A stretch of 64,000 bases of DNA, taken from the NCBI RefSeq assembly GCF_054482595.1, contig NZ_CM137008.1; one strand, given 5' to 3'. Within the stretch, counting starts at the first letter, position 1. The number at the start of each line of letters is the position of its first letter. Both the position numbers and the translations under genes were made by a program. A model generated the notes under the pieces. That model was not told where the DNA came from, made no database searches, and saw only the letters and a program-made list of their open reading frames with translations. Shown one piece after another: positions 1 through 14,249 of the stretch.

Positions 1-819
1 GACCATCCGAACCCTTTAGCCGCACGCCAGGCTATTTGCGACATATTCCTTAAACGCATCGTTAAAGGGAAAGGGCTGGATGTCATTGTTGATAAAACAG
101 GCGAAGAACCAATGCCGACACCATGGACGGTCTTTGAACTGGTCAAGGCAATCAGTAACGTCGATCACAGCTGGAAAGAGTTCATGCTGATCGACATGGG
201 CGGCGCAACCACCGATGTTTATTCCGCCTGTGCCAACACGCTCTCGCCCGACACCGTTTTACACGGCGTACCGGAACCCTTCGTAAAACGGACGGTGGAA
301 GGCGATCTGGGAATGCGCGTCTCGGCAGTGGTGGTTGGTGAAAGTGCGAAAGAGTTAGTCAATGTGAATTTTGCTCAGCAACCCGCACAGCTGGACGCTT
401 TTTATCATTACCTCCGTCATCTAGTCGCTCATCCCGACTACTTACCCGCAAATGCAGAAGAGAAATATTTCGATACCGTCCTGGCCGGACTGTGTGTGGG
501 TTATGCCACCGAAAGACATGCGGGCACCAAAAAAGAGGTCTGCACCTGCGTCGGCAATGTCGATTTACAGATGGGACGTGACCTGACAACCGTGCGTAAA
601 GTCGTCGGATCCGGCGGATGGCTCTCGCGTGCCAGTCAGTTCGATATGCATCACTGGTTGAAATTCCGCGAGTTAAACGACGACGGTAAACGCATTCTCT
701 TACCGACCGAATTTGAATATTACCGCGATTCCCGGGGGCTATTACCACTGCTGGCAAACGTCGCCAGAGTCGATCCGCTGGCCGCCGCGCGCACCAGTAT
801 TCAATGCTTAACCCTATAA
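1..819 (+). CDS. glmL: Glutamate mutase-associated protein GlmL/MutL (reactivating chaperone-like), 5'-truncated by the window edge
   Basis: Frame 1 is open from nt 1 to the stop at 817-819 (the listed ORF begins at an internal Met at 112). It lies directly upstream of glmE in the conserved glmL-glmE-mal order known from Clostridium glutamate mutase operons. Confidence 0.7.
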   Translation, partial: DHPNPLAARQAICDIFLKRIVKGKGLDVIVDKTGEEPMPTPWTVFELVKAISNVDHSWKEFMLIDMGGATTDVYSACANTLSPDTVLHGVPEPFVKRTVEGDLGMRVSAVVVGESAKELVNVNFAQQPAQLDAFYHYLRHLVAHPDYLPANAEEKYFDTVLAGLCVGYATERHAGTKKEVCTCVGNVDLQMGRDLTTVRKVVGSGGWLSRASQFDMHHWLKFRELNDDGKRILLPTEFEYYRDSRGLLPLLANVARVDPLAAARTSIQCLTL

Positions 820-837
820 CAATTAAGGCTGCAATCA

Positions 838-2283
838 ATGGAACTTCGAAATAAGAAATTAACCCATGACGAATTCATGACCGAGCGGCAACAGGTACTG
901 AAAACCTGGGAAACCGGCAAGGATGTTGAAAACTTTGAAGATGGCGTTAAATACCAACAAAACATTCCTGAGCATAAACGCTTCTCTCATGCCCTGCTGA
1001 AAGCAGACAAGGAAGGTAACACCCTTAGCCAACCGCGCGCAGGTGTGGCGCTGATGGACGAACACATCGAACTACTGAAAACACTGCAAGAAGAGTGCGA
1101 TCTGCTGCCGAGCACTATCGATGCATATACCCGTCTGAATCGGTACGAAGAAGCGGCTGTAGGGATTAAAAAATCCATCGAAGCCGGAACCTCTAAACTG
1201 AACGGTTTACCGGTAGTTAACCACGGCGTCGCAGCTTGCCGTCGCCTCACCGAAACCCTGCAAAAACCGCTACAGATCCGCCACGGCACGCCAGATGCGC
1301 GTCTGCTGGCTGAAATCTCGATGGCCAGTGGCTTTACCAGTTATGAAGGCGGCGGCATTTCCTACAACATTCCGTATGCCAAACGCGTAACGCTGGAAAA
1401 ATCGATCCGCGACTGGCAGTACTGCGACCGTTTAATGGGGATGTATGAAGAACACGGGATCCGCATCAACCGCGAACCGTTTGGCCCACTAACAGGTACG
1501 CTGATCCCGCCGTTTATCTCGCACTCTATCGCGATAATCGAAGGCTTGCTGGCGCTGGAACAGGGTGTGAAATCTATCACCGTTGGTTATGGACAGGTCG
1601 GCAGCCTGACGCAGGATGTTGCGGCGATCCAGTCTCTGCGTGAACTTGCACACGAATATTTTCAGAGCTATGGCTATACCGACTATGAATTAAGTACCGT
1701 GTTTCACCAGTGGATGGGCGGCTTTCCGGAAGACGAATCGAAAGCGTTCGCTATTATCTCATGGGGCGCAGCCGTCGCGGGGATGTCTGGTGCCACCAAA
1801 GTCATCACCAAAAGTCCGCACGAAGCCTGGGGCATCCCGACTGCCGCTGCCAACATTCAGGGGCTGAAAGCCTCCCGCCAGATGCTCAACATGGTCAACG
1901 AGCAGAAATTCCCGCCGTGCCCTGCGGTTGAACTGGAAATTGAACTGATTAAGAGCGAGGTTCGCGCGGTACTGAATAAAGTGTTCGAACTGGGTAATGG
2001 TGATATTGCGCGCGGTACGGTGCTGGCATTTGAAGCGGGCGTACTGGATGTGCCGTTTGCGCCAGCCGCCTGCAACGCGGGCAAAATTCTTCCGGTCCGA
2101 GACAACACCGGCGCGATACGCGTACTGGAAGCCGGAGCCGTTCCATTGCCAAAAGATATTCTCGACCTCCACCACGATTACGTTGCGGAACGCGCACGCT
2201 TTGAAGGACGCCAACCGACATTCCAGATGGTTGTAGATGACATCAATGCTGTATCCCACAGTAAATTAATAGGAAGACCATAA
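838..2283 (+). CDS. glmE: Glutamate mutase E (epsilon, catalytic) subunit, methylaspartate mutase
   Basis: 481 aa; the translation aligns along its length with my recollection of Clostridium GlmE (MEL.NKK..., PRAGVALLDEHIELL, GGGISYN.PYAK, TVFHQWMGGFP.DESKAF, SFQMV.DDI.AV). Stop overlaps the mal start (TAATG). Confidence 0.9.
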   Translation: MELRNKKLTHDEFMTERQQVLKTWETGKDVENFEDGVKYQQNIPEHKRFSHALLKADKEGNTLSQPRAGVALMDEHIELLKTLQEECDLLPSTIDAYTRLNRYEEAAVGIKKSIEAGTSKLNGLPVVNHGVAACRRLTETLQKPLQIRHGTPDARLLAEISMASGFTSYEGGGISYNIPYAKRVTLEKSIRDWQYCDRLMGMYEEHGIRINREPFGPLTGTLIPPFISHSIAIIEGLLALEQGVKSITVGYGQVGSLTQDVAAIQSLRELAHEYFQSYGYTDYELSTVFHQWMGGFPEDESKAFAIISWGAAVAGMSGATKVITKSPHEAWGIPTAAANIQGLKASRQMLNMVNEQKFPPCPAVELEIELIKSEVRAVLNKVFELGNGDIARGTVLAFEAGVLDVPFAPAACNAGKILPVRDNTGAIRVLEAGAVPLPKDILDLHHDYVAERARFEGRQPTFQMVVDDINAVSHSKLIGRP

Positions 2284-3524
2284 TGAAAATAAAACAGGCT
2301 CTGTTCACCGCTGGCTACTCCTCATTCTATTTCGATGACCAGCAGGCGATAAAAAACGGAGCGGGTCATGACGGCTTTTTTTATACTGGGGAGCCGGTAA
2401 CACAGGGGTTTAACACCGTACGTCAGGCCGGGGAGTGCGTATCGGTACAGTTGATTCTGGAAAACGGCGCGGTCGCTGTAGGTGACTGTGCTGCCGTACA
2501 GTATTCTGGGGCAGGTGGTCGCGATCCACTGTTCCTCGCAGAGCACTTTATTCCGTTCCTCAACGACCATATCAAGCCATTACTGGTAGGCCGCGATGTG
2601 GATGCTTTCCTGCCGAATGCCCGTTTCTTCGACAAATTGCGTATTGACGGCAACTTGCTGCATACCGCCGTGCGCTACGGATTATCACAGGCGCTGCTTG
2701 ATGCTACCGCGCTGGCAACCGGCCGTCTGAAAACTGAAGTGGTCTGTGATGAATGGCAGTTGCCACGCGTGGCGGAATCCATTCCATTATTTGGTCAGAG
2801 CGGCGACGATCGATATATCGCCGTCGATAAGATGATCCTTAAAGGCATCGACGTGCTGCCCCATGCGCTGATTAATAACGTCGAAGAGAAGCTGGGCTTT
2901 AAAGGTGAAAAACTGCGCGAATATGTCCGCTGGTTGTCGGATCGCATTCTAAGCAAGCGCACCAGCGCACGCTACCACCCTACCCTGCACATCGATGTAT
3001 ACGGCACTATCGGTCTGATCTTCGATATGGATACGCTTCGCTGTGCGCAATACATCGCCAGCCTGGAAAAAGAAGCGCAAGGCCTGCCGCTCTACATTGA
3101 AGGGCCGGTCGATGCCGGTAACAAGCCCGATCAAATTCGCCTGCTGACCGCGATTACCAAAGAGCTGACGCGCCTCGGTTCCGGCGTGAAAATTGTGGCC
3201 GATGAATGGTGTAACACCTACCAGGATATTGTTGATTTCACTGATGCCGCCAGTTGTCACATGGTGCAAATCAAAACCCCGGATCTGGGCAGTATTCACA
3301 ACATCGTCGATGCGGTTCTTTACTGCAATAGCCACAGCATGGAAGCGTACCAGGGCGGCACCTGCAATGAAACTGATGTCAGTGCCCGCACCTGTGTCCA
3401 CGTCGCCCTTGCCGCTCGCCCCATGCGTATGCTGGTAAAACCAGGGATGGGCTTTGACGAAGGCCTCGATATCGTCTTCAACGAAATGAATCGTACTATC
3501 GCGCTGTTGCAGGCTAAGGATTAA
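2283..3524 (+). CDS. mal: 3-methylaspartate ammonia-lyase (methylaspartase)
   Basis: 413 aa, N-terminus MKIKQALFTAGYSSFYFDDQQAIKNGAGHDGF... matches enterobacterial methylaspartase (Citrobacter-type) as I recall it; enolase-superfamily length; 1-nt overlap with glmE. Confidence 0.9.
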   Translation: MKIKQALFTAGYSSFYFDDQQAIKNGAGHDGFFYTGEPVTQGFNTVRQAGECVSVQLILENGAVAVGDCAAVQYSGAGGRDPLFLAEHFIPFLNDHIKPLLVGRDVDAFLPNARFFDKLRIDGNLLHTAVRYGLSQALLDATALATGRLKTEVVCDEWQLPRVAESIPLFGQSGDDRYIAVDKMILKGIDVLPHALINNVEEKLGFKGEKLREYVRWLSDRILSKRTSARYHPTLHIDVYGTIGLIFDMDTLRCAQYIASLEKEAQGLPLYIEGPVDAGNKPDQIRLLTAITKELTRLGSGVKIVADEWCNTYQDIVDFTDAASCHMVQIKTPDLGSIHNIVDAVLYCNSHSMEAYQGGTCNETDVSARTCVHVALAARPMRMLVKPGMGFDEGLDIVFNEMNRTIALLQAKD

Positions 3525-3527
3525 CAA

Positions 3528-4898
3528 ATGGCTCGTTCTTTTAAAGTCTTATCGCCAACGGCAATCCTCGGGTATGGATTCCCGGAAGAGAGCTTCCGCA
3601 AAGCGATGGCAGAATCGCCCGATCTGATCGCCGTTGATGCAGGCTCTTCCGATCCAGGCCCCCACTACCTCGGGGCAGGCAAACCGTTTACCGATCGCGC
3701 AGGGGTCAAGCGCGATCTGCGCTATATGATCACCGCAGGCGTGCAAAATAATATACCGGTGGTGATCGGAACGGCTGGCGGTTCTGGTGCCGCACCACAC
3801 CTGGAGTGGTGCCGAGAAATAATTCATGAGATTGCCCGGGAAGAGCACCTCTCGTTCTCGATGGCGTTGATCCCGGCAGACGTTGACAAAGCCATCGTCC
3901 ACCAGGCGCTGGATAACGGCAAAATCACGGCGCTGGATTTTGTCCCGCCGTTAACCCACGACGCGATTGACGAAAGTACGTATATCGTCGCGCAAATGGG
4001 CATCGAACCCTTCCAGCGGGCGCTGAAAGAACGCGCGCAAGTGGTGCTGGGCGGGCGCGCTTACGACCCGGCCTGCTTTGCTGCGCTCCCGATCATGCAA
4101 GGCTTTGATGAAGGTCTGGCGCTGCATTGTGGGAAAATCCTTGAATGCGCGGCAATCGCCGCAACGCCCGGCTCAGGCTCTGACTGTGCGATGGGCATCA
4201 TTGATGACAACGGCTTTACGCTGAAGACATTTAATCCGAAGCGTAAATTTACCGAAACGTCAGCAGCTGCACACACACTGTATGAGAAATCCGATCCCTA
4301 CTTCCTGCCAGGACCTGGCGGCGTGTTGAACCTGAAAGGCTGCACATTTAAAGCAGTCAATGACGGCGAAGTCTACGTCAGCGGTTCTAAGCATGAAGAA
4401 ACGCCGTATGCCCTGAAACTGGAAGGTGCACGACGGGTGGGCTTCCGCTGTCTGACCATCGCCGGAACGCGCGACCCGATTATGATCGCCGGGATCGATA
4501 AAATCATCGATGAAGTCAAAACCAGCGTTTCGCGTAACCTGTCGCTCGACGATGACAGCATTCGCATCAATTTCCACCTGTACGGCAAAAACGGGGTGAT
4601 GGGAGACCATGAACCGATGCAAACTGCCGGGCATGAGCTGGGGATTGTCCTTGATGTAGTTGCACCGACCCAGGAAATTGCCAACAGCGTTTGCTCGCTG
4701 GTGCGCTCTACCATGCTGCACTACGGCTATGAAAACCGCATCGCTACCGCAGGTAATCTGGCGTTCCCGTTCTCCCCTTCTGATATCCAGGGCGGGCCGG
4801 TATACGAATTTTCCATATATCACCTGATTGAAGCCAACGACGCTCTGCGTTTTGATTTCCATATTGAACAGGTGACGCCAGAAGGAGTTCAGGCATGA
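3528..4898 (+). CDS. DUF1446 family protein (AtuA-like), function unknown
   Basis: 456 aa; motifs resembling the AtuA/DUF1446 family (GGRAYDPACFAALP..., GKILECAA); starts 4 nt after the mal stop with no promoter space. Family assignment is from memory, not a search. Confidence 0.6.
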   Translation: MARSFKVLSPTAILGYGFPEESFRKAMAESPDLIAVDAGSSDPGPHYLGAGKPFTDRAGVKRDLRYMITAGVQNNIPVVIGTAGGSGAAPHLEWCREIIHEIAREEHLSFSMALIPADVDKAIVHQALDNGKITALDFVPPLTHDAIDESTYIVAQMGIEPFQRALKERAQVVLGGRAYDPACFAALPIMQGFDEGLALHCGKILECAAIAATPGSGSDCAMGIIDDNGFTLKTFNPKRKFTETSAAAHTLYEKSDPYFLPGPGGVLNLKGCTFKAVNDGEVYVSGSKHEETPYALKLEGARRVGFRCLTIAGTRDPIMIAGIDKIIDEVKTSVSRNLSLDDDSIRINFHLYGKNGVMGDHEPMQTAGHELGIVLDVVAPTQEIANSVCSLVRSTMLHYGYENRIATAGNLAFPFSPSDIQGGPVYEFSIYHLIEANDALRFDFHIEQVTPEGVQA

Positions 4899-5212
4899 AA
4901 CAGTCAATTGTCTCACTGGCGCAAGTCATTCGTTCGAAAAATGCCGGACCTTACGAACTGGTTTTAGATATTTTATTTAAAACGAAAGAAAACTATGAGC
5001 GAGTTAAATCATCAGGGCAATTAACCCCAGAACTGATTGCGCGCTTATATCATGTTGAACCTGACTTTATTCATCGTATTGTCTGGTTTGATCCTTCTAA
5101 CGCAGTAAAAATCGTCATGCCACGAGATATTATCTCCGGGAATGTAGGTGACAATGATGTCTATGGTGCACAGCAACATGCACCTTTATTAAATATGAGT
5201 TTCGATTTGTAA
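4895..5212 (+). CDS. DUF4387-like small protein, usual partner of DUF1446/AtuA-like proteins
   Basis: 105 aa; start ATG overlaps the stop of the upstream DUF1446 gene (ATGA), implying translational coupling; motif IRSKNAGPYELVLDI... resembles DUF4387 as recalled. Confidence 0.55.
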   Translation: MKQSIVSLAQVIRSKNAGPYELVLDILFKTKENYERVKSSGQLTPELIARLYHVEPDFIHRIVWFDPSNAVKIVMPRDIISGNVGDNDVYGAQQHAPLLNMSFDL

Positions 5213-5295
5213 AAATCCGAATACTTTTAGCCAACTGACATCCCGTCACTTATTGCAGTTCAACACTTCAGCTATTTGTAAGGTTGTAATAGCAG

Positions 5296-5327
5296 GTAGA
5301 TGCCTGAATCTCTATTCAGGCATCTAC
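5296..5327 (+). terminator. Perfect 14-bp-stem hairpin (gtagatgcctgaat-ctct-attcaggcatctac) followed by a U-rich tract; putative terminator/attenuator
   Basis: Read directly from the sequence between the DUF4387 stop (5212) and the transporter start (5373); arms are exact reverse complements. Confidence 0.5.
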
Positions 5328-5372
5328 TTCTCCTGATTCTGATTTATCGCCGTGCACCTGATGGAGGAAAAA

Positions 5373-6653
5373 ATGAAGACAATAAGTTTAACCACGATGA
5401 TTCTTTTGGCGCTGGTACTTGGAATGATTATCGGCGTAGTGCTCAATAACACTGCTTCACCGGAAACCGCAAAACTCTATGCGCAAGAAATATCGATATT
5501 CACGACGATTTTCTTACGACTGATAAAAATGATTATCGCTCCGTTAGTGGTCTCTACCCTGGTGGTAGGTATTGCTAAAATGGGCGATGCCAAAGCCCTT
5601 GGTCGTATTTTTTCTAAAACACTCTTTTTATTTATTTGCGCCTCATTGCTGTCAATTGCCTTAGGCTTGATAACGGTAAATTTCTTCATGCCAGGTACAG
5701 GAATTAATTTTGTTGCACACGGTGCCGAAACCACCGGAGTGGTCGCGGCAGAACCCTTTACGCTAAAAGTATTTATTTCGCATGCTTTCCCCACCAGCAT
5801 TGTCGATGCCATGGCGCACAATGAAATTTTGCAAATCGTGGTGTTCTCAATTTTCCTCGGCTGTAGCCTGACGGCGATTGGCGAGAAAGGCAGCGCCATC
5901 GTTCACGCCTTAGATTCGCTGGCACATGCCATGTTAAAGCTGACTGGCTACGTCATGCTCTTCGCTCCCCTGACCGTATTCGCTGCTATTTCAGCATTGA
6001 TTGCTGAACGAGGACTGGCAGTTATGGTGAGCGCCGGGATCTTTATGGGTGAATTTTATTTCACCATGTTATTACTTTGGGTGCTGCTTATCGGTCTGGC
6101 CATCGTTTATGTCGGCCCCTGCATCAGACGCCTGACCCGCGCCCTTTCGGAACCCGCCCTGCTGGCATTTACCACATCCAGTTCTGAAGCGGCTTTTCCG
6201 GGAACGCTTGAAAAACTGGAGCAATTTGGCGTTTCCCCCAAAATTGCCAGCTTTGTCTTACCCATTGGCTACTCATTTAATCTCGTTGGATCAATGGCCT
6301 ACTGCTCCTTCGCTACAGTTTTCATCGCCCAGGCCTGCAATATCCATTTATCCATCGGTGAACAAATCACCATGCTGTTGATCCTGATGTTGACCTCGAA
6401 AGGAATGGCTGGCGTACCACGCGCCTCAATGGTGGTTATCGCCGCCACGCTCAACCAGTTCAATATTCCGGAAGCGGGGCTGATCTTGCTGATGGGCGTT
6501 GATCCGTTCCTTGATATGGGGCGTTCCGCGACAAACGTCATGAGCAACGCAATGGGCGCTGCGATGGTGAGTCGGTGGGAAGGCGAACATTTCGGCGAGG
6601 GCTGTCGGGGTAAAGCATTAAAACCCAATGAATCGAACGTTGCTCTGCCCTGA
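5373..6653 (+). CDS. Dicarboxylate/amino acid:cation symporter (DAACS family; GltP/DctA-like), probable glutamate or C4/C5-dicarboxylate uptake
   Basis: Hydrophobic multi-TM translation typical of the GltP/DctA family. I chose ATG 5373 (MKTISL...) because GGAGG at 5363-5367 sits 5 nt upstream; the listed ORF starts at GTG 5352. Confidence 0.75.
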   Translation: MKTISLTTMILLALVLGMIIGVVLNNTASPETAKLYAQEISIFTTIFLRLIKMIIAPLVVSTLVVGIAKMGDAKALGRIFSKTLFLFICASLLSIALGLITVNFFMPGTGINFVAHGAETTGVVAAEPFTLKVFISHAFPTSIVDAMAHNEILQIVVFSIFLGCSLTAIGEKGSAIVHALDSLAHAMLKLTGYVMLFAPLTVFAAISALIAERGLAVMVSAGIFMGEFYFTMLLLWVLLIGLAIVYVGPCIRRLTRALSEPALLAFTTSSSEAAFPGTLEKLEQFGVSPKIASFVLPIGYSFNLVGSMAYCSFATVFIAQACNIHLSIGEQITMLLILMLTSKGMAGVPRASMVVIAATLNQFNIPEAGLILLMGVDPFLDMGRSATNVMSNAMGAAMVSRWEGEHFGEGCRGKALKPNESNVALP

Positions 6654-6760
6654 GGGGGATCTTAAGCAATCAGAAGCCAATGACTACGCATTTTTATAAG
6701 CCGGATCATGAAGTTAGACGGCAATTAAGTAACACTAACGTTTAAGGTGAAAAGTGAAAT

Positions 6761-8413
6761 ATGTCCAAACCATTTATCTGGCAAGAACCGTTTCTACAAA
6801 ATAAAGACGGTACAGAATATACATTAATTAGCGATCAGCATATTACAGTAACGGAATTAGACGGCGAAGAAGTGATAAAAATTGCTCCTGAAGCATTAAC
6901 GCTGCTTGCCCGGCAGGCATTTTATGAAGCCTCTTTTTTCTTACGTTCCGCTCATTTGCAACAGGTCGCCAGCATTCTTAACGATCCGCAGGCCAGTAGT
7001 AATGATAAATACGTTGCGTTGCAGTTATTACGTAATGCTGAAGTCTCAGCAAAAGGGGTATTACCCAACTGTCAGGATACCGGCACCGCAACTATTATTG
7101 CCAGTAAAGGGCAACAGATATGGACCGGAGGTAACGACGCCGAAGCCTTAAGCAAAGGCATTTACACCACTTTTCAGGAAAATAATCTGCGCTTTTCACA
7201 AAATGCGCCGCTGGATATGTATACCGAAGTCAATACGCAAACCAATCTCCCGGCGCAGATTGATATCAGCGCTGTCGCTGGTGATGTGTACCATTTTCTC
7301 TGTGTTAATAAAGGGGGCGGCTCCGCCAATAAAGCCGCGCTTTATCAGGAAACCAAATCCTTATTGCAACCAGAAAAACTGACCGCATTTTTAATCGAAA
7401 AAATGAAATCGCTGGGCACCGCTGCCTGCCCGCCTTACCACATCGCCTTTGTCGTCGGAGGGCTTTCAGCCGATCAAACCTTAAAAGTTGCCAAGCTGGC
7501 CTCAACGAAATATTACGACAATTTGCCCACCAGCGGAAACGAGCAGGGACAAGCATTCCGTGATATTGAGCTGGAAAAAGCGTTGCTCGAGGCCAGTCAG
7601 CAATTTGGTATTGGTGCACAATTTGGGGGGAAATATTTCGCTCATGATATTCGCGTCATTCGTCTGCCGCGTCACGGTGGCTCTTGCCCGATAGCTATGA
7701 CGCTCTCCTGTTCTGCCGATCGCAATATCAAAGCAAAAATTAACAAACACGGTATCTGGCTGGAAAAACTCGAACACAATCCGGGGCAATATATTCCAGC
7801 CTCATTGCGGGAAGAAAATCACGCGCAACATGTACAACTGGATCTAAACCGTCCGTTGCGTGACGTGATGCTGGATCTCGCCAGATTACCGGTAGGTACC
7901 CGCGTGTCGTTAAGTGGTCCCATCGTAGTGGCGCGCGATATCGCCCACGCCAAAATAAAAGCGCGGCTGGATAGCGGCGAATCGATGCCGGAGTACCTGA
8001 AGCATCATATTGTCTATTACGCTGGCCCGGCGAAAACACCGGAGAACATGGCCTGCGGTTCACTGGGTCCAACCACGGGCGGTCGAATGGACGGTTATGT
8101 CGATACCTTCCAGGCAGCTGGCGGCAGTCTGGTGATGTTATCGAAAGGTAACCGCAGCCAGCAGGTCACCGATGCCTGTCACAAACATGGCGGCTTCAAT
8201 CTGGGAAGTATTGGCGGTGCAGCTGCGTTACTGGCGCAAGAATATGTCAAAAGTCTGCGTTGCCTGGAATACCCGGAGCTGGGTATGGAAGCGGTGTGGA
8301 TGATGGAAGTGGAAAATCTGCCCGCATTCATCCTGGTAGATGATAAAGGCAATAATTTCTTTAGTCAGTTTGAGCAGCAACATCGCTGCGCCAGTTGCCC
8401 TGCGGGACATTAA
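6761..8413 (+). CDS. fumD: Class I (Fe-S) fumarate hydratase family protein, likely mesaconase/fumarase FumD
   Basis: 550 aa; N-terminal half with Cys-containing motifs (PNCQDTGTA) and C-terminal half typical of FumA/FumB-type hydratases; sits in the methylaspartate cluster, where mesaconate hydration is the expected next step. Confidence 0.8.
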
Positions 8414-8422
8414 GGAAAATGA

Positions 8423-9025
8423 ATGGAAGCGCGAATTTCAACTGAACGGCATGTGCAGCGCCAACAGAAATTGAAGGAACAGGTCGATACGCGCGTCGCA
8501 GCGGCGATAGAGAAAAAAGGGATCTTGATTGTTTTCACCGGCAACGGCAAAGGGAAATCCACTGCCGCGTTTGGTACTGTGACGCGCGCGGTGGGTCATG
8601 GCAAAACGGTGGGGGTTGCGCAGTACATCAAGGGGCAATGGGACAACGGCGAATACAACCTTCTCCAGCCGCTGGGGGTTGAGTTTCATATAATGGGAAC
8701 CGGTTTTACCTGGGAGACTCAGAACCGGCAAGCGGATATCGACGCGGCGAAAGAGATCTGGTCGGAAAGCAAACGGATGCTGGCTGACAAGCGTTACGAC
8801 TTAGTGGTGCTTGATGAGCTGACCTATATGCTGGCTTACCATTATCTGGATACCGAAGAAGTGATCGCTTCTCTGCAAAACCGCCCGGCACAACAAAGTG
8901 TCATTGTCACCGGACGCGGTTGCCACAGTCAGATATTAAAAATGGCGGATACGGTAAGCGAAATCCGCCCCGTCAAACATGCTTTTGATAACGGCATACA
9001 GGCCCAGCCGGGTATCGACTGGTAA
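8423..9025 (+). CDS. ATP:cob(I)alamin adenosyltransferase (CobA/BtuR family)
   Basis: 200 aa; P-loop region IVFTGNGKGKSTAAFG and overall similarity to BtuR/CobA as recalled; SD AAGGA upstream; 9 nt after the fumD stop. Confidence 0.8.
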   Translation: MEARISTERHVQRQQKLKEQVDTRVAAAIEKKGILIVFTGNGKGKSTAAFGTVTRAVGHGKTVGVAQYIKGQWDNGEYNLLQPLGVEFHIMGTGFTWETQNRQADIDAAKEIWSESKRMLADKRYDLVVLDELTYMLAYHYLDTEEVIASLQNRPAQQSVIVTGRGCHSQILKMADTVSEIRPVKHAFDNGIQAQPGIDW

Positions 9026-9032
9026 TAACTGC

Positions 9033-9051
9033 GCCTGGCATCCCGCCAGGC
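9033..9051. terminator. Short hairpin (gcctgg-N7-ccaggc) between the convergent stops of the adenosyltransferase gene and the LysR gene; possible bidirectional terminator
   Basis: Inverted repeat read from the sequence; the flanking U-tract is weak. Confidence 0.35.
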
Positions 9052-9058
9052 ACAGGTT

Positions 9059-9964
9059 TTACATCTCCTGCGGTACGACCGATTTCGCCAGCATCCATTC
9101 ACGAAATTGCTGCAAGTGCGGTGAGTCAGACTTCTCTTCCTGCCACGTCATAATAAAACGATTACCGGTACGAATAGGCACATCACAGGGGATCACCATA
9201 TCGCCACTATCCAAATCATGTTGAATAGCGAACCGTGGTAACAGCGCCACGCCGAGATTAGAGCGCACGGCGGCAATCAGCATTGAAAGCAAATCGAAAC
9301 GTGGTCCGTTATTGACCAGCGGACTGCTAACGCCAGATAAAGCAAACCACTCTTCCCAGCCAGTAATACGGGTGCTTTGATGCAGAAGCGGTAACTCAGT
9401 AAGCAGTTCTGCCACTGACAGCTTTTGATCGGACATTGCAAGCAAACTGCCGCTGCATACCGGCAAAATCTCCTCATCAAAGAGATATTCTACTTCCGCC
9501 CAGGGCGCGCAAAAATTTTCGCGCATAATGACAGCATCGTACTCCCGATTAAGAAAATCGCCGTTATTAGCTAAAGAATGAATATTAACAATAATATCGG
9601 GATGTAACTTTGTGAATTCATGTAAATTTGGGATCAACCAGTGGGTACTAAAAGTAGGATTAACGGCAAGTTCAATAACCTGAACCGTAGGCTGCCAGGT
9701 CATAATGGTATTGGTATCGCGTTCCAGCTTATTTAATGTTTCTTTTACTATCCCCAGGTAATACTTCCCTGTATCATTAAGAAAAATGCGTTTTTTAGAG
9801 TGTGAAAATAACGGAGTACGTAAAAATTCCTCCAGCGCACTTACTTGTCTGAATACTGCACTTTGGGTTAACGCTAACTCCTCTGCCGCTCTGGTATAAC
9901 TTTCATGACGTGCGACGACCTCAAAAGTCACCAGCAGTTCCGTTTTAGGTATTTTCCCTCGCAT
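9059..9964 (-). CDS. LysR-family transcriptional regulator
   Basis: 301 aa; N-terminal HTH typical of LysR-type regulators (FEVVARHESYTRAAEELALTQSAVFRQVSALEE) and a C-terminal substrate-binding-like domain. Confidence 0.85.
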   Translation of the reverse strand: MRGKIPKTELLVTFEVVARHESYTRAAEELALTQSAVFRQVSALEEFLRTPLFSHSKKRIFLNDTGKYYLGIVKETLNKLERDTNTIMTWQPTVQVIELAVNPTFSTHWLIPNLHEFTKLHPDIIVNIHSLANNGDFLNREYDAVIMRENFCAPWAEVEYLFDEEILPVCSGSLLAMSDQKLSVAELLTELPLLHQSTRITGWEEWFALSGVSSPLVNNGPRFDLLSMLIAAVRSNLGVALLPRFAIQHDLDSGDMVIPCDVPIRTGNRFIMTWQEEKSDSPHLQQFREWMLAKSVVPQEM

Positions 9965-10530
9965 AATGCCGTCCCTTAAAAATAGTTTAAACCATCAAAA
10001 ATACATTACTTATTACGAAGTAATGGTAACCAAAGCAGCAATAAATAATTTATAAGAATCATGATTGACATTTATAAACCAGTAAGGCTGGCGTGACAAA
10101 TATCTTAATCAGATAATAATAATCCGAAAAGCACAGCGCCTTTCGAATTATCCGGAATCACATTAAGTGAAAATTATTAAATTGATATCATTTATCATAT
10201 CTGTGGATATTATGATAAACAATCAACAAAGATTTTATTTTTGATTTATAGCATATCCATCTAAGAATTTTTGCGATGCTGCAATATCCGGGGTAAAGAC
10301 CCGATCCTGGCTGACAAATGGCACGACTTGACGAAAAGCGGTGAACATCGCTTTTGTTGATTTACTTAACGCTACGGTCAAACGCTGGGAAGCCAGTGCA
10401 TCAGGTAACGATTCGAAATTCGCCGTCGTTCTTATTCGTGGCTTGCGGTCGGTCGCGGCAATCCACAGTGGCTGTGGTCATGCAGTCAAGCCTGCAGTCA
10501 GATTTCGACCGTGGTTAACCGTTTAAGACA

Positions 10531-10557
10531 TAAAAAAGGCCATCATACGATGGCCAA
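10531..10557 (-). terminator. Intrinsic terminator of the sdh-suc operon
   Basis: GC hairpin followed by a U-run on the minus strand (A-run 10532-10537 on plus). Confidence 0.7.
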
Positions 10558-10630
10558 CCATGTCGAAACCGACAGCCCTTCGCCATTCCTGTAGAGGGAA
10601 GCGGCGAGGGCTATTTCTTATTACAGATAT
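10531..10630 (-). ncRNA. sdhX: sucD 3'UTR-derived sRNA (SdhX/RybD-like), ending at the sucD intrinsic terminator
   Basis: About 100 nt between the sucD stop (10631-10633) and a terminator hairpin (ggccatc-atacg-atggcc, 10538-10556) with a U-run on the minus strand. That SdhX is made from the sucD 3'UTR is established knowledge; identity was not verified by alignment. Confidence 0.5.
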
Positions 10631-11500
10631 TTATTTCAGAACAGTTTTCAGTGCTTCACCGATATCCGCCAGGCTGCGAACGGTTTTCACGCCTGCGGCT
10701 TCCAGAGCAGCGAATTTCTCATCCGCAGTCCCTTTCCCACCGGCAATGATGGCACCCGCGTGGCCCATACGTTTGCCTTTCGGCGCAGTCACACCAGCGA
10801 TGTAACCCACAACTGGCTTGGTAACGTGCTCTTTGATGTACGCAGCTGCTTCTTCTTCAGCGCTACCGCCGATCTCACCGATCATCACGATCGCTTCGGT
10901 CTGCGGATCTTTTTCGAACATTTCGAGAATGTCGATAAAGTTAGAGCCAGGGATCGGGTCACCGCCGATACCGACACAGGTCGACTGACCGAAACCGTAA
11001 TCCGTGGTCTGTTTAACCGCTTCATAGGTCAGTGTACCGGAACGGGAAACGATACCCACTTTACCCGGTTTGTGAATGTGACCCGGTTGGATACCAATTT
11101 TGCATTCACCCGGGGTGATAACGCCTGGGCAGTTCGGGCCGATCATACGAACGCCGGCTTCATCCAGTTTCACTTTCACAGTCAGCATATCCAGCGTCGG
11201 GATGCCTTCAGTGATGGTGATAATCAGTTTGATGCCTGCGTCGATGGCTTCCAGAATGGAGTCTTTGCAGAACGGTGCTGGTACGTAGATAACAGAAGCG
11301 GTAGCGCCAGTAGCAGCAACAGCTTCACGCACTGTGTTGAACACCGGCAGGCCGAGGTGGGTAGTACCGCCTTTACCTGGGGTTACGCCGCCAACCATTT
11401 TAGTGCCGTATGCAATGGCCTGTTCTGAGTGGAAAGTCCCCTGGCTACCGGTAAAGCCCTGGCAGATAACCTTGGTGTTTTTATCAATTAAAATGGACAT
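10631..11500 (-). CDS. sucD: Succinyl-CoA synthetase alpha subunit
   Basis: 289 aa, translation matches E. coli SucD as recalled ([45 protein letters not shown]...). Confidence 0.97.
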
Positions 11501-12666
11501 TATTTCCCCTCCACTGCGGCAACAACCTGCTGAGCTGCATCCGTCAGACCTTTTGCTGCAATAATATTCAGGCCGCTGTCAGCCAGTTTCTTCGCGCCGA
11601 GTTCGGCGTTGTTACCTTCCAGACGTACCACGACCGGTACGTTAACACCCACTTCCGCTACCGCGCCGATGATACCGTCAGCGATCAGGTCGCAACGAAC
11701 GATACCGCCGAAGATGTTAACCAGAACGGCTTTCACTTTGTCGTCAGAGAGAATGATTTTGAACGCTTCGGTTACACGTTCTTTGGTTGCGCCGCCGCCA
11801 ACGTCCAGGAAGTTAGCCGGTTCGCCGCCGTGCAGTTTAACGATGTCCATCGTACCCATCGCCAGACCTGCGCCGTTAACCATACAACCGATGTTACCGT
11901 CCAGCGCAACGTAGTTCAGTTCCCACTGTGCAGCCTGTGCTTCACGTGAATCTTCCTGCGACTGGTCACGCATTTCGCGCAGATCAGGCTGGCGGAACAG
12001 TGCGTTGCCATCAGCGCCCAGTTTGCCGTCGAGGCAAATCAGATCGCCCTGTTTGGTAATGACCAGCGGGTTGATTTCGATCAGCGCTAGGTCGCGCTCC
12101 AGGAAAATGGTCGCCAGGCCCATGAAGATTTTGGTGAACTGCTGAACCAGTTTACCTTCCAGACCCAGTTTGAACGCCAGCTCGCGTCCCTGATACGGCA
12201 TCGGGCCAGTCAGCGGATCAAGCGCAACTTTATGGATCAGGTGCGGAGTTTCTTCCGCCACTTTTTCGATTTCCACGCCGCCTTCGGTGGAGGCCATAAA
12301 GACCACACGACGGGAACTACGGTCTACAACGGCACCGAGATACAGCTCTTTAGCGATATCGGTCGCTGCTTCAACCAGAATCTGGTTAACCGGTTGGCCA
12401 TTGGCATCTGTTTGATACGTTACCAGACGCTTGCCGAGCCAGTTTTCTGCAAAAGCACGGATGTCTTCTTTGCTGTTTACAACTTTCACACCGCCCGCTT
12501 TACCGCGGCCACCAGCGTGAACCTGACATTTCACTACCCACGGACCGGCACCGATTTTTGAAGCGGCTTCTTCTGCTTCGCGCGGAGTAGTACAGGCATA
12601 ACCCACCGGTGCTGGTAAGCCATAGCGGGCAAACAGTTGTTTTGCCTGATATTCATGTAAGTTCAT
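11500..12666 (-). CDS. sucC: Succinyl-CoA synthetase beta subunit
   Basis: 388 aa, [61 protein letters not shown]...; 1-nt overlap with the sucD start. Confidence 0.97.
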
Positions 12667-12750
12667 GTGTTCTGTCCATCCTTCAGTAATCGTTATCTTT
12701 TAAACCGTAGACCGAATATTTCGTATCGCTCCCGGGTATTGTCGGTCACC

Positions 12751-12990
12751 CGTAGGCCTGATAAGACGCGCAAGCGTCGCATCTGGCATCGCTTGTCGGA
12801 TGCGGCGCAAGCGCCTTATCCGACCTACATCGGTGCTCCCCGTAGGCCTGATAAGACGTGTAAGCGTCGCATCAGGCATCGCTTGTCGGATGCGACGCGA
12901 GCGCCTTATCCGACCTACATCGGTGCTTCCCGTAGGCCTGATAAGACGCGTTAAGCGTCGCATCAGGCTTCAATTGCCGGAGAAGGCGAT
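12751..12990. repeat. Tandem ~90-bp BIME/REP array (about 2.5 copies) in the sucB-sucC spacer
   Basis: Unit starts at 12751, 12841 and 12931 (cgtaggcctgataagacg...); each unit holds REP-type palindromes (gcctgataagacg / cggatgcggcg...cgccttatccg). Confidence 0.85.
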
Positions 12991-13031
12991 AATGTCTTAC
13001 CCGGTCTACAGTGCAGGTGAAGCTTAAACTA

Positions 13032-14249
13032 CTAAACGTCCAGCAGCAGACGTGTCGGATCTTCCAGCAACTCTTTGATCGTTACCAGGAAGCCCACGGA
13101 TTCGCGACCATCGATCAGACGGTGATCGTAGGACAGCGCCAGATACATCATCGGCAGGATCTCAACCTGACCATTCACAGCCATCGGACGATCTTTGATA
13201 GCGTGCATACCCAGAATTGCGCTCTGCGGCGGGTTGATGATCGGCGTAGACATCAGGGAACCGAACACACCACCGTTGGTGATGGTGAAGTTACCACCGG
13301 TCAGATCTTCAACCGTCAGCTTGCCGTCACGGCCTTTAACTGCAAGCTCTTTGATTTTCTTCTCGATGTCTGCCATGCCGAGGGTATCGACATCACGCAG
13401 TACCGGCGTCACCAGGCCGCGCGGCGTAGAAACCGCCATGCTGACGTCGAAATAGTTGTGGTAAACCACGTCATCGCCGTCGATAGAAGCATTCACTTCC
13501 GGGTAACGTTTCAGGGCTTCAACCACCGCTTTCACGTAGAAGGACATAAAGCCCAGACGGATGCCGTGGCGTTTTTCAAACGCTTCACCGTACTGCTTAC
13601 GCAGATCCATAATCGGCTTCATGTTGACTTCGTTGAACGTGGTCAGCATGGCGGTGGAGTTTTTCGCTTCCAGCAGACGCTCTGCCACACGCTTACGCAG
13701 GCGAGTCATCGGGACACGTTTTTCACTACGTGCAGCCAGAGCCGGTTGCGCTGCCGAAGCAGCCGCTGCCGGAGCAGACTCTTTCGCCGGGGCTTTCGCC
13801 AGATGTTTTTCCACATCTTCACGGGTCAGACGACCACCCACACCGGTGCCTTTAATGGCGCTGGCGTCGAGGTTGTGTTCAGCCAGCAGGCGACGGATCG
13901 CCGGGCTTAACGCATCGTTGTTTTGCTCTTCCAGAGACGCCTGCTGGCGTTGCGCCGGTGTGGACGCTTTCTCTTCAGATTTGGCGCTGGTTTCTTTACC
14001 GGCGCTGTTGCCTTCACGCAGGCGACCAAGGATCTGACGAGACGTTACCGTTGTACCTTCATCTTCCAGAACCGCATCCAGAATGCCGTCTGCTGATGCC
14101 GGTACTTCCAGTACCACTTTGTCAGTTTCGATTTCTACCAGCACTTCATCACGTACGACTGCGTCGCCGGGTTTTTTATGCCAGGTTGCGACGGTGGCAT
14201 CGGCTACGGATTCAGGCAGGTCAGGGACCAGAATATCTACGCTACTCAT
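13032..14249 (-). CDS. sucB: 2-oxoglutarate dehydrogenase E2 (dihydrolipoyl succinyltransferase)
   Basis: 405 aa, lipoyl domain N-terminus ([29 protein letters not shown]...) and catalytic C-terminus. Confidence 0.97.

Follow-up and report, generated by a model that had tools for sequence, protein, structure and literature searches.

What lies between the gene of a LysR-type regulator and the sucD terminator of E. coli is the question raised by positions 9965-10530 of the window, the window being the whole stretch of 64,000 nucleotides analysed here (contig NZ_CM137008.1, RefSeq assembly GCF_054482595.1). A sequence-only reading had taken this interval for a non-coding, AT-rich junction between island and core DNA, carrying a palindrome that might serve the adjacent regulator as operator. 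The regulator is a member of the methylaspartate island (coordinates of all features are collected in Table 1) and is composed of the Pfam domains HTH_1 and LysR_substrate. Its top NCBIfam model was GcvA, with 221 bits against a cut-off of 288 and hence below it, and its top match among solved structures was also GcvA (8y6u, E 1.3e-42).

The island occupied the entire cydA-sucD interval, where mngR-mngAB of K-12 were gone, and its left end lay beside cydA in both forms of the island, the present one and a longer one. The spacer next to the LysR gene was found in 980 of 5426 complete E. coli genomes, without annotated feature, and was 100% identical in O157:H7 genomes; strain XH990 was 100% identical to the window over the whole query. 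In the majority of the remaining complete genomes mngR adjoined sucD, which defines a presence/absence polymorphism at this site. One or two of the matches to the interval among E. coli genomes fell on plasmid-classed records. No integrase or transposase was annotated between cydA and sucD, and no tRNA gene that might have served as integration target was present in window 1-14000. Within the island, a 200-aa cobO-like frame stood between the LysR and fumarase genes in C. braakii, S. arizonae and the window, and none appeared at this place in the ORF list of E. whittamii (L009 3840-4178), whose adenosyltransferase gene may be disrupted.

The right-hand insertion boundary had been predicted to fall within 9965-10530, and alignment with the sucD-mngR sequence of K-12 bore this out: the breakpoint was located at 10524, where similarity to K-12 begins, and matches to K-12 covered window 10524-10640. 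Most of the 5426 complete genomes likewise matched the query from 10524 onwards. Position 10524 corresponds to the mngR stop codon in K-12, where mngR converges on sucD. The boundary touched the U-tract of the sucABCD terminator and left both the terminator and the small RNA SdhX intact. At this end of the island, neither an IS element nor an integrase, a tRNA or a flanking repeat was involved. From the U-tract (about 10532) to the stop codon of sucD (10631-11500, minus strand), the 3' UTR was the same as in K-12. The SdhX region (10528-10630, minus strand), which lies in this 3' UTR, was intact with its seed TTCGACATGGT immediately ahead of the terminator stem; a permissive Rfam scan of 9800-10800 returned zero matches, SdhX included. 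Further inside the core, the odhB(sucB)-sucC spacer (window 12667-13031) differed in length between strains: K-12 and CFSAN061770 had 274 bp, EC200461 had 93 bp, and the window had 365 bp, as did XH990.

The description of the whole ~570 bp as AT-rich held for the part adjoining the LysR gene (9965-10234, 28.5% GC) but not for 10235-10530, which had a coding-like GC content of 47.3%. No ORF of at least 62 aa overlapped 9965-10630, in agreement with the earlier judgement that no convincing ORF is present, and the 61-codon GTG-initiated frame mentioned there does exist at 10341-10526 (plus strand). What had been missed is that half of the supposedly non-coding AT-rich stretch consists of pieces of two genes, one HAL-like (histidine ammonia-lyase-like) and one of the RtcB family. 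With the intact 556-aa protein of strain EC200461 as tblastn query, the two HAL pieces displayed 85% and 90% amino acid identity and lay in a single frame. They formed a continuous stub frame (TANFESLP...AINQK*, 10426-10235, minus strand) in which 63 of 556 codons were left; the last three nucleotides of the second piece (10429-10431) derived from a HAL site 190 bp further upstream. The two RtcB remnants were in different frames, and the 61-codon GTG frame ended in the true C-terminal frame of RtcB (PAVRFRPWLTV* vs PAVRFRPWLTFKA*). As a whole, 10235-10532 aligned with intact HAL and RtcB genes situated at the same site in other strains. A terminator-like palindrome on the plus strand (10334-10355) was discarded as a by-product, as it lies within the HAL stub and is non-palindromic in the intact gene.

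Table 1. Features of the interval between the LysR-type regulator gene and sucD, and of its borders (window coordinates)
Feature	Position	Strand	Basis
LysR-type regulator gene, 301 aa, GcvA-like, member of the methylaspartate island	9059..9964	-	ORF, Pfam, NCBIfam, structure match
True intergenic spacer, from the former HAL stop to the LysR start, 28.5% GC	9965..10234	-	GC content, colinearity with EC200461/ST648
Dyad of the sequence-only reading, CATTACTT-N6-AAGTAATG	10004..10025		perfect 8-nt arms
Hairpin, 15-bp stem, 5-nt loop (GCUGU), followed by AUUAUUAUC	10118..10152	-	fold and six-sequence comparison
Second dyad, TTTATCATA-N11-TATGATAAA, 9-bp arms, 16 nt downstream of the former HAL stop	10191..10219	-	RNA fold -8.9 kcal/mol
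HAL/PAL/TAL (histidine-ammonia-lyase-like) remnant, last ~46 codons and stop	10235..10372	-	tblastn 40/47 identical, E 2e-23; blastn 87.5%
Second HAL remnant, codons ~378-397, fused in frame to the 3' piece	10368..10431	-	tblastn 18/20, E 2e-7; blastn 86.9%
RtcB-family remnant, internal, about codons 375-394	10432..10488	+	57 nt, blastn 89.5% to EC200461 RtcB; frame 'WLWSCS'
RtcB-family remnant, last ~11 codons (PAVRFRPWLT..)	10491..10532	+	42 nt, blastn 96.2%, continuous into sucD
Right-hand island/core junction, first bases in common with K-12	10524..10531		K-12 matches, three-way sequence comparison
Intrinsic terminator of sucABCD/SdhX, core DNA	10528..10555	-	hairpin 10538-10555, U-tract (T-tract) 10528-10537

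The intact counterparts of these pieces were encountered in strains with a longer island. Of the 5426 complete genomes, 142 matched the left part of the query at 80-90% identity, and two of them, EC200461 and ST648, were inspected (long-form coordinates L001 9336-17077 and L005 3141-4538 for EC200461; ST648 is L045). In both, an intact gene for a 556-aa HAL/PAL/TAL ammonia-lyase preceded the LysR gene on the same strand, and the spacer 9965-10234 was colinear with the LysR-HAL spacer at ~86-88% identity. The whole interval of EC200461 comprised HAL, then hutG, hutI, hutD, a permease gene and hutU, followed by a convergent gene for a 465-aa RtcB-family protein whose stop codon abuts the sucD/SdhX terminator. 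The intact EC200461 proteins carried the Pfam domains Lyase_aromatic (HAL) and RtcB (RtcB-family). The long form would be ancestral to that of the window, since stubs cannot be gained.

Some properties of the intact proteins deserve mention. The HAL-family protein of EC200461 (L001 9336-11006, minus strand) scored 277 bits against a cut-off of 539 for the hutH equivalog and displayed, as annotated, a hydrophobic, signal-peptide-like N-terminus (MKGLIRRVTVTVVLWSVCSIAMAKS). Such an N-terminus is, to our knowledge, unusual for a histidine ammonia-lyase, and the start codon of this gene may be misplaced. As for the 465-aa protein (L005 3141-4538, plus strand), NCBIfam models of the RtcB family matched only residues ~214-464, below their cut-offs, and none matched the N-terminal ~210 residues; Pfam RtcB spanned residues 63-464.

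Comparison of the long form with the window revealed at least four deletions behind the scar, of about 8.9 kb, 190, 342 and 175 bp. In the lineage of the window, the ~8.9-kb deletion joined the middle of HAL to the 3' part of RtcB, and the three small deletions followed in a stepwise erosion. The small losses lay at short repeats: the 190-bp HAL loss between CGACGGYG direct repeats, the 342-bp in-frame HAL loss with its junction at an AAYGCCA repeat, and the 175-bp RtcB loss at GCAGTCA-like repeats. Escherichia sp. E1V33 had the RtcB-side endpoint and the GAACGACGG junction in common with the window, retained 190 bp more of HAL and displayed a 260-bp internal HAL loss of its own. The deletions encountered in E. 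whittamii, where HAL was retained over 315 bp together with part of hutU and the RtcB end, and in MOD1-EC7003, where RtcB was intact, were different ones. This shows that several Escherichia lineages lost the hut genes independently of one another. Very probably, the stretch 9965-10530 is a composite left by gene loss and not a dedicated regulatory region, its dyad being a chance palindrome and its hairpins the 3' structures of the lost operon.

The true spacer, colinear with its long-form counterpart, presumably holds the promoter and 5' UTR of the LysR gene. A minus-strand scan for sigma-70 promoters found none between the hairpins and the LysR ATG. The lone match on this strand (10259-10232) was set aside, as it was located within the HAL stub and as shuffles are expected to give just as many matches in total. 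Manual inspection yielded two candidates, TAAACT at 9989-9984 and TTGTCA-N17-TATAAA at 10099-10071 (minus strand), neither of which was flagged by the scan.

The best-conserved block of the spacer was the hairpin 10118-10152. In an 81-nt context it folded at -24.3 kcal/mol with a z score of -3.9, and none of 200 shuffles was as stable. Across six distinct Escherichia sequences, 97.8% of the cells were paired; five pairs varied one-sidedly and kept their pairing on the minus strand through G.U or another standard pair. Changes on both sides of a pair were not found among the six sequences, and the pattern is suggestive and not proof. The tail of this hairpin is an interrupted U-tract, and the consensus terminator scan did not report it. 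The hairpin is a candidate terminator or insulator left from the HAL/hut operon. The second dyad of the spacer (10191-10219) had a counterpart in MOD1-EC7003, TTATCACAT-N6-ATGTGATAA, with T>C/A>G replacements on both arms and a shorter loop, which favours a hairpin over a protein site of fixed spacing. To judge from folding and comparison, both gene-strand hairpins are most likely 3' structures or the terminator of the lost hut operon.

Another explanation, considered unlikely, ascribes a present function to these elements: the conserved hairpins 10118-10152 and 10191-10219 would separate the LysR gene from the hut operon as a working terminator or attenuator, or the dyad at 10004-10025 would be an Escherichia-specific, unusually spaced operator of the GcvA-like regulator, or both. 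If it were true, read-through from histidine catabolism would tune the regulator of glutamate fermentation in the long form of the island. Where the O157-type deletion has removed the hut genes, the hairpins would shield the regulator from read-through out of the sdh-suc operon, which is highly expressed and stands there 666 bp upstream of the LysR gene on the same strand.

Somewhat less probable still is the proposal of the sequence-only reading, in which the regulator would repress its own promoter through the dyad. Its description of the dyad was accurate: the cattac-N10-gtaatg element has perfect 8-bp arms, CATTACTT at 10004-10011 and AAGTAATG at 10018-10025, separated by a 6-nt spacer, and its near edge lies 40 bp upstream of the ATG at 9964, so that it covers the positions 40-61 bp upstream. 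It may overlap the -35 position if TAAACT (9989-9984), unflagged by the promoter scan, is the -10 element. In 2000 dinucleotide-preserving shuffles, though, a perfect dyad with 8-bp arms and a spacer of 0-20 nt arose in 19% of cases for the 270-bp spacer and in 22% for the 566-bp region, which is to say that a palindrome of this kind is expected in about one shuffle out of five. A longer perfect dyad, the one with 9-bp arms at 10191-10219, was present 170 bp away in the same spacer.

Conservation spoke in both directions. Between the two island types of E. coli, with a spacer divergence of ~14%, all 16 arm positions were unchanged and two of the six spacer bases had changed; invariant arms around a variable spacer were also found in E. 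whittamii. A dyad bound by a protein would show such a pattern, although the invariance of the arms is not significant (0.86^16 ~0.09). Among 34 loci with LysR orthologues (79-99% identity), the exact dyad was restricted to the window, a 99%-identical contig labelled Citrobacter MAG, and E. whittamii. It was broken without compensation in E1V33 (CCTTACTT...AAATAATG, two different pairs affected) and in MOD1-EC7003 (one arm changed at two positions, spacer shortened by 1 nt). It was absent upstream of all 29 orthologues from Citrobacter, Salmonella, Klebsiella, Enterobacter, Buttiauxella, Lelliottia, Pluralibacter and Raoultella, despite proteins that are 79-87% identical. In these other genera, Salmonella arizonae and diarizonae included, the sequence upstream of the LysR gene was unrelated to the dyad at its position.

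Upstream regions of the orthologues differed in further respects. The neighbouring gene varied by genus, being for instance a PocR/AraC regulator gene in Salmonella arizonae and a tetrapyrrole methylase gene in C. braakii. Nearer to the ATG, a TTAAAC-TATTTTT element was common to Citrobacter, Salmonella, Klebsiella, Buttiauxella and Escherichia and was not found in the group of Enterobacter, Lelliottia and Pluralibacter. Ribosome-binding sites were of the GGAAGA type in all non-Escherichia genera and AGGGA or TGGACGA in Escherichia. A block AATATAAC(T/A)C, located ~115 bp upstream of the LysR start, was conserved in nearly all non-Escherichia loci despite their differing flanking genes.

The architecture expected of such an operator was also considered. 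Regulators of this class typically bind an interrupted dyad with T-N11-A geometry, located in a divergent promoter region that is shared with the regulated operon, and GcvA represses its own gene. Here the centre of the dyad falls between bases and excludes a symmetric T-N11-A; symmetric T/A pairs lie N6, N8, N14 and N16 apart. There was no divergent target gene, the upstream neighbour being the co-oriented HAL gene (a stub in the window) and the methylaspartate genes being convergent or distant. Neither the presumed target promoter (547 bp upstream of glmS) nor the remainder of the island contained another copy of the dyad; the best match had 4 mismatches out of 16, which equals the shuffle expectation. 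Likewise, no GcvA-type box (ATTA-n7-TAAT with at most one mismatch) was present within 200 bp upstream of the LysR gene in Escherichia. The C. freundii group (at -51) and Salmonella (at -50/-51) did have one-mismatch matches to this geometry, which were rejected, being T-rich and not common to other genera.

Known GcvA sites are 15-bp boxes of the form ATTAG-n5-CTAAT (PMC5002191). The half-sites ATTAC/GTAAT of the dyad are one base off these, and the regulator is GcvA-like, but the two half-sites stand n10 apart instead of n5, a spacing that is longer by 5 bp or about half a helical turn. At chance level, unevenly conserved, present in a single copy, at odds with GcvA spacing and facing no divergent target, the dyad found no support as an autoregulatory operator. 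Judged from these statistics and comparisons, it is most likely an AT-rich palindrome that arose by chance and is confined to certain lineages.

A role of the same dyad in RNA is less probable again. It would act as a stem-loop in a long 5' UTR of the LysR mRNA, affecting stability or translation, with transcription starting upstream, for example from 10099-10071 (minus strand). The 8-bp stem does fold on the gene strand (-6.2 kcal/mol), and the upstream TTGTCA-N17-TATAAA is a promoter-like match in 10 of 12 positions that was missed by the scan since its last base is A. Yet the stem is weak and AU-rich, the disruptions in E1V33 and MOD1-EC7003 are uncompensated, and no conserved structure was predicted near the LysR start among 20 orthologues. 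An AU-rich long-range pairing around the LysR start codon was likewise dropped, RNAalifold having predicted zero pairs on these 20 orthologues. Finally, it is hardly credible that the 84-aa 'hypothetical protein' WP_001309348.1, annotated by PGAP over 10235-10490 in CFSAN061770 and CNREC_004-43, is the product of a genuine small gene, for its frame is a chimera that begins antisense to the RtcB stub, crosses two HAL stubs and ends at the HAL stop, is split by a frameshift in the window (48-aa and 26-aa frames), and is without annotation in XH990, whose sequence is identical there.

Gene loss, as the preferred reading, gives a plain meaning to an interval that stands unannotated, or at times as 'hypothetical protein', beside a well-studied operon in E. 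coli of the O157:H7 type: it is a deletion scar. Gene stubs joined into a chimera likewise account for the 84-aa ORF that some genomes have annotated, and the value of the whole lies mainly in annotation. The spacer bound to hold the promoter of the regulator is narrowed to 270 bp, and single AT-rich palindromes should, as a matter of caution, not be taken as operators. A modest evolutionary point is that the glutamate-fermentation island once adjoined a histidine-to-glutamate (hut) cluster. Since the breakdown of histidine yields glutamate, on which the adjacent fermentation genes act, the long island may encode one continuous route.

Composed of a spacer and a deletion scar, the interval is nothing out of the ordinary for an island already known, and it will not surprise a specialist. 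The glutamate-fermentation cluster of O157:H7, with its FumD mesaconase, was described by Kronen and Berg 2015 (PMC4682846), where the LysR gene appears as 'putative LTTR' in a figure legend. The genes of that cluster, namely glmS/L/E, mal, DUF1446/AtuA-like, gltP-like symporter, fumD, cob(I)alamin adenosyltransferase and putative LTTR, were found here in the same order. In the main text of that paper, no description was found of the interval between LTTR and sucD, of the hut/RtcB remnants or of the longer, hut-containing form. The sRNA SdhX (RybD) arises by processing of the sdhCDAB-sucABCD transcript at its 3' end, as described by Miyakoshi et al. 2019 (PMC6393394). Its seed UUCGACAUGGU, directly 5' of the terminator stem, is intact here together with the stem; SdhX itself, at 10528-10630, lies outside the finding and marks only where variable DNA may begin. 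With respect to GcvA, to which the present regulator is closest, the differences beyond spacing are a score below the family cut-off, the lack of a divergent partner gene and a site that is not conserved among orthologues. Like the pseudogene remnants and deletion scars of other strain-variable E. coli loci, the interval contains stubs, in and out of frame, of genes that are intact elsewhere, with junctions at short direct repeats and lineage-specific deletions, and in these respects it is a scar of the usual kind.
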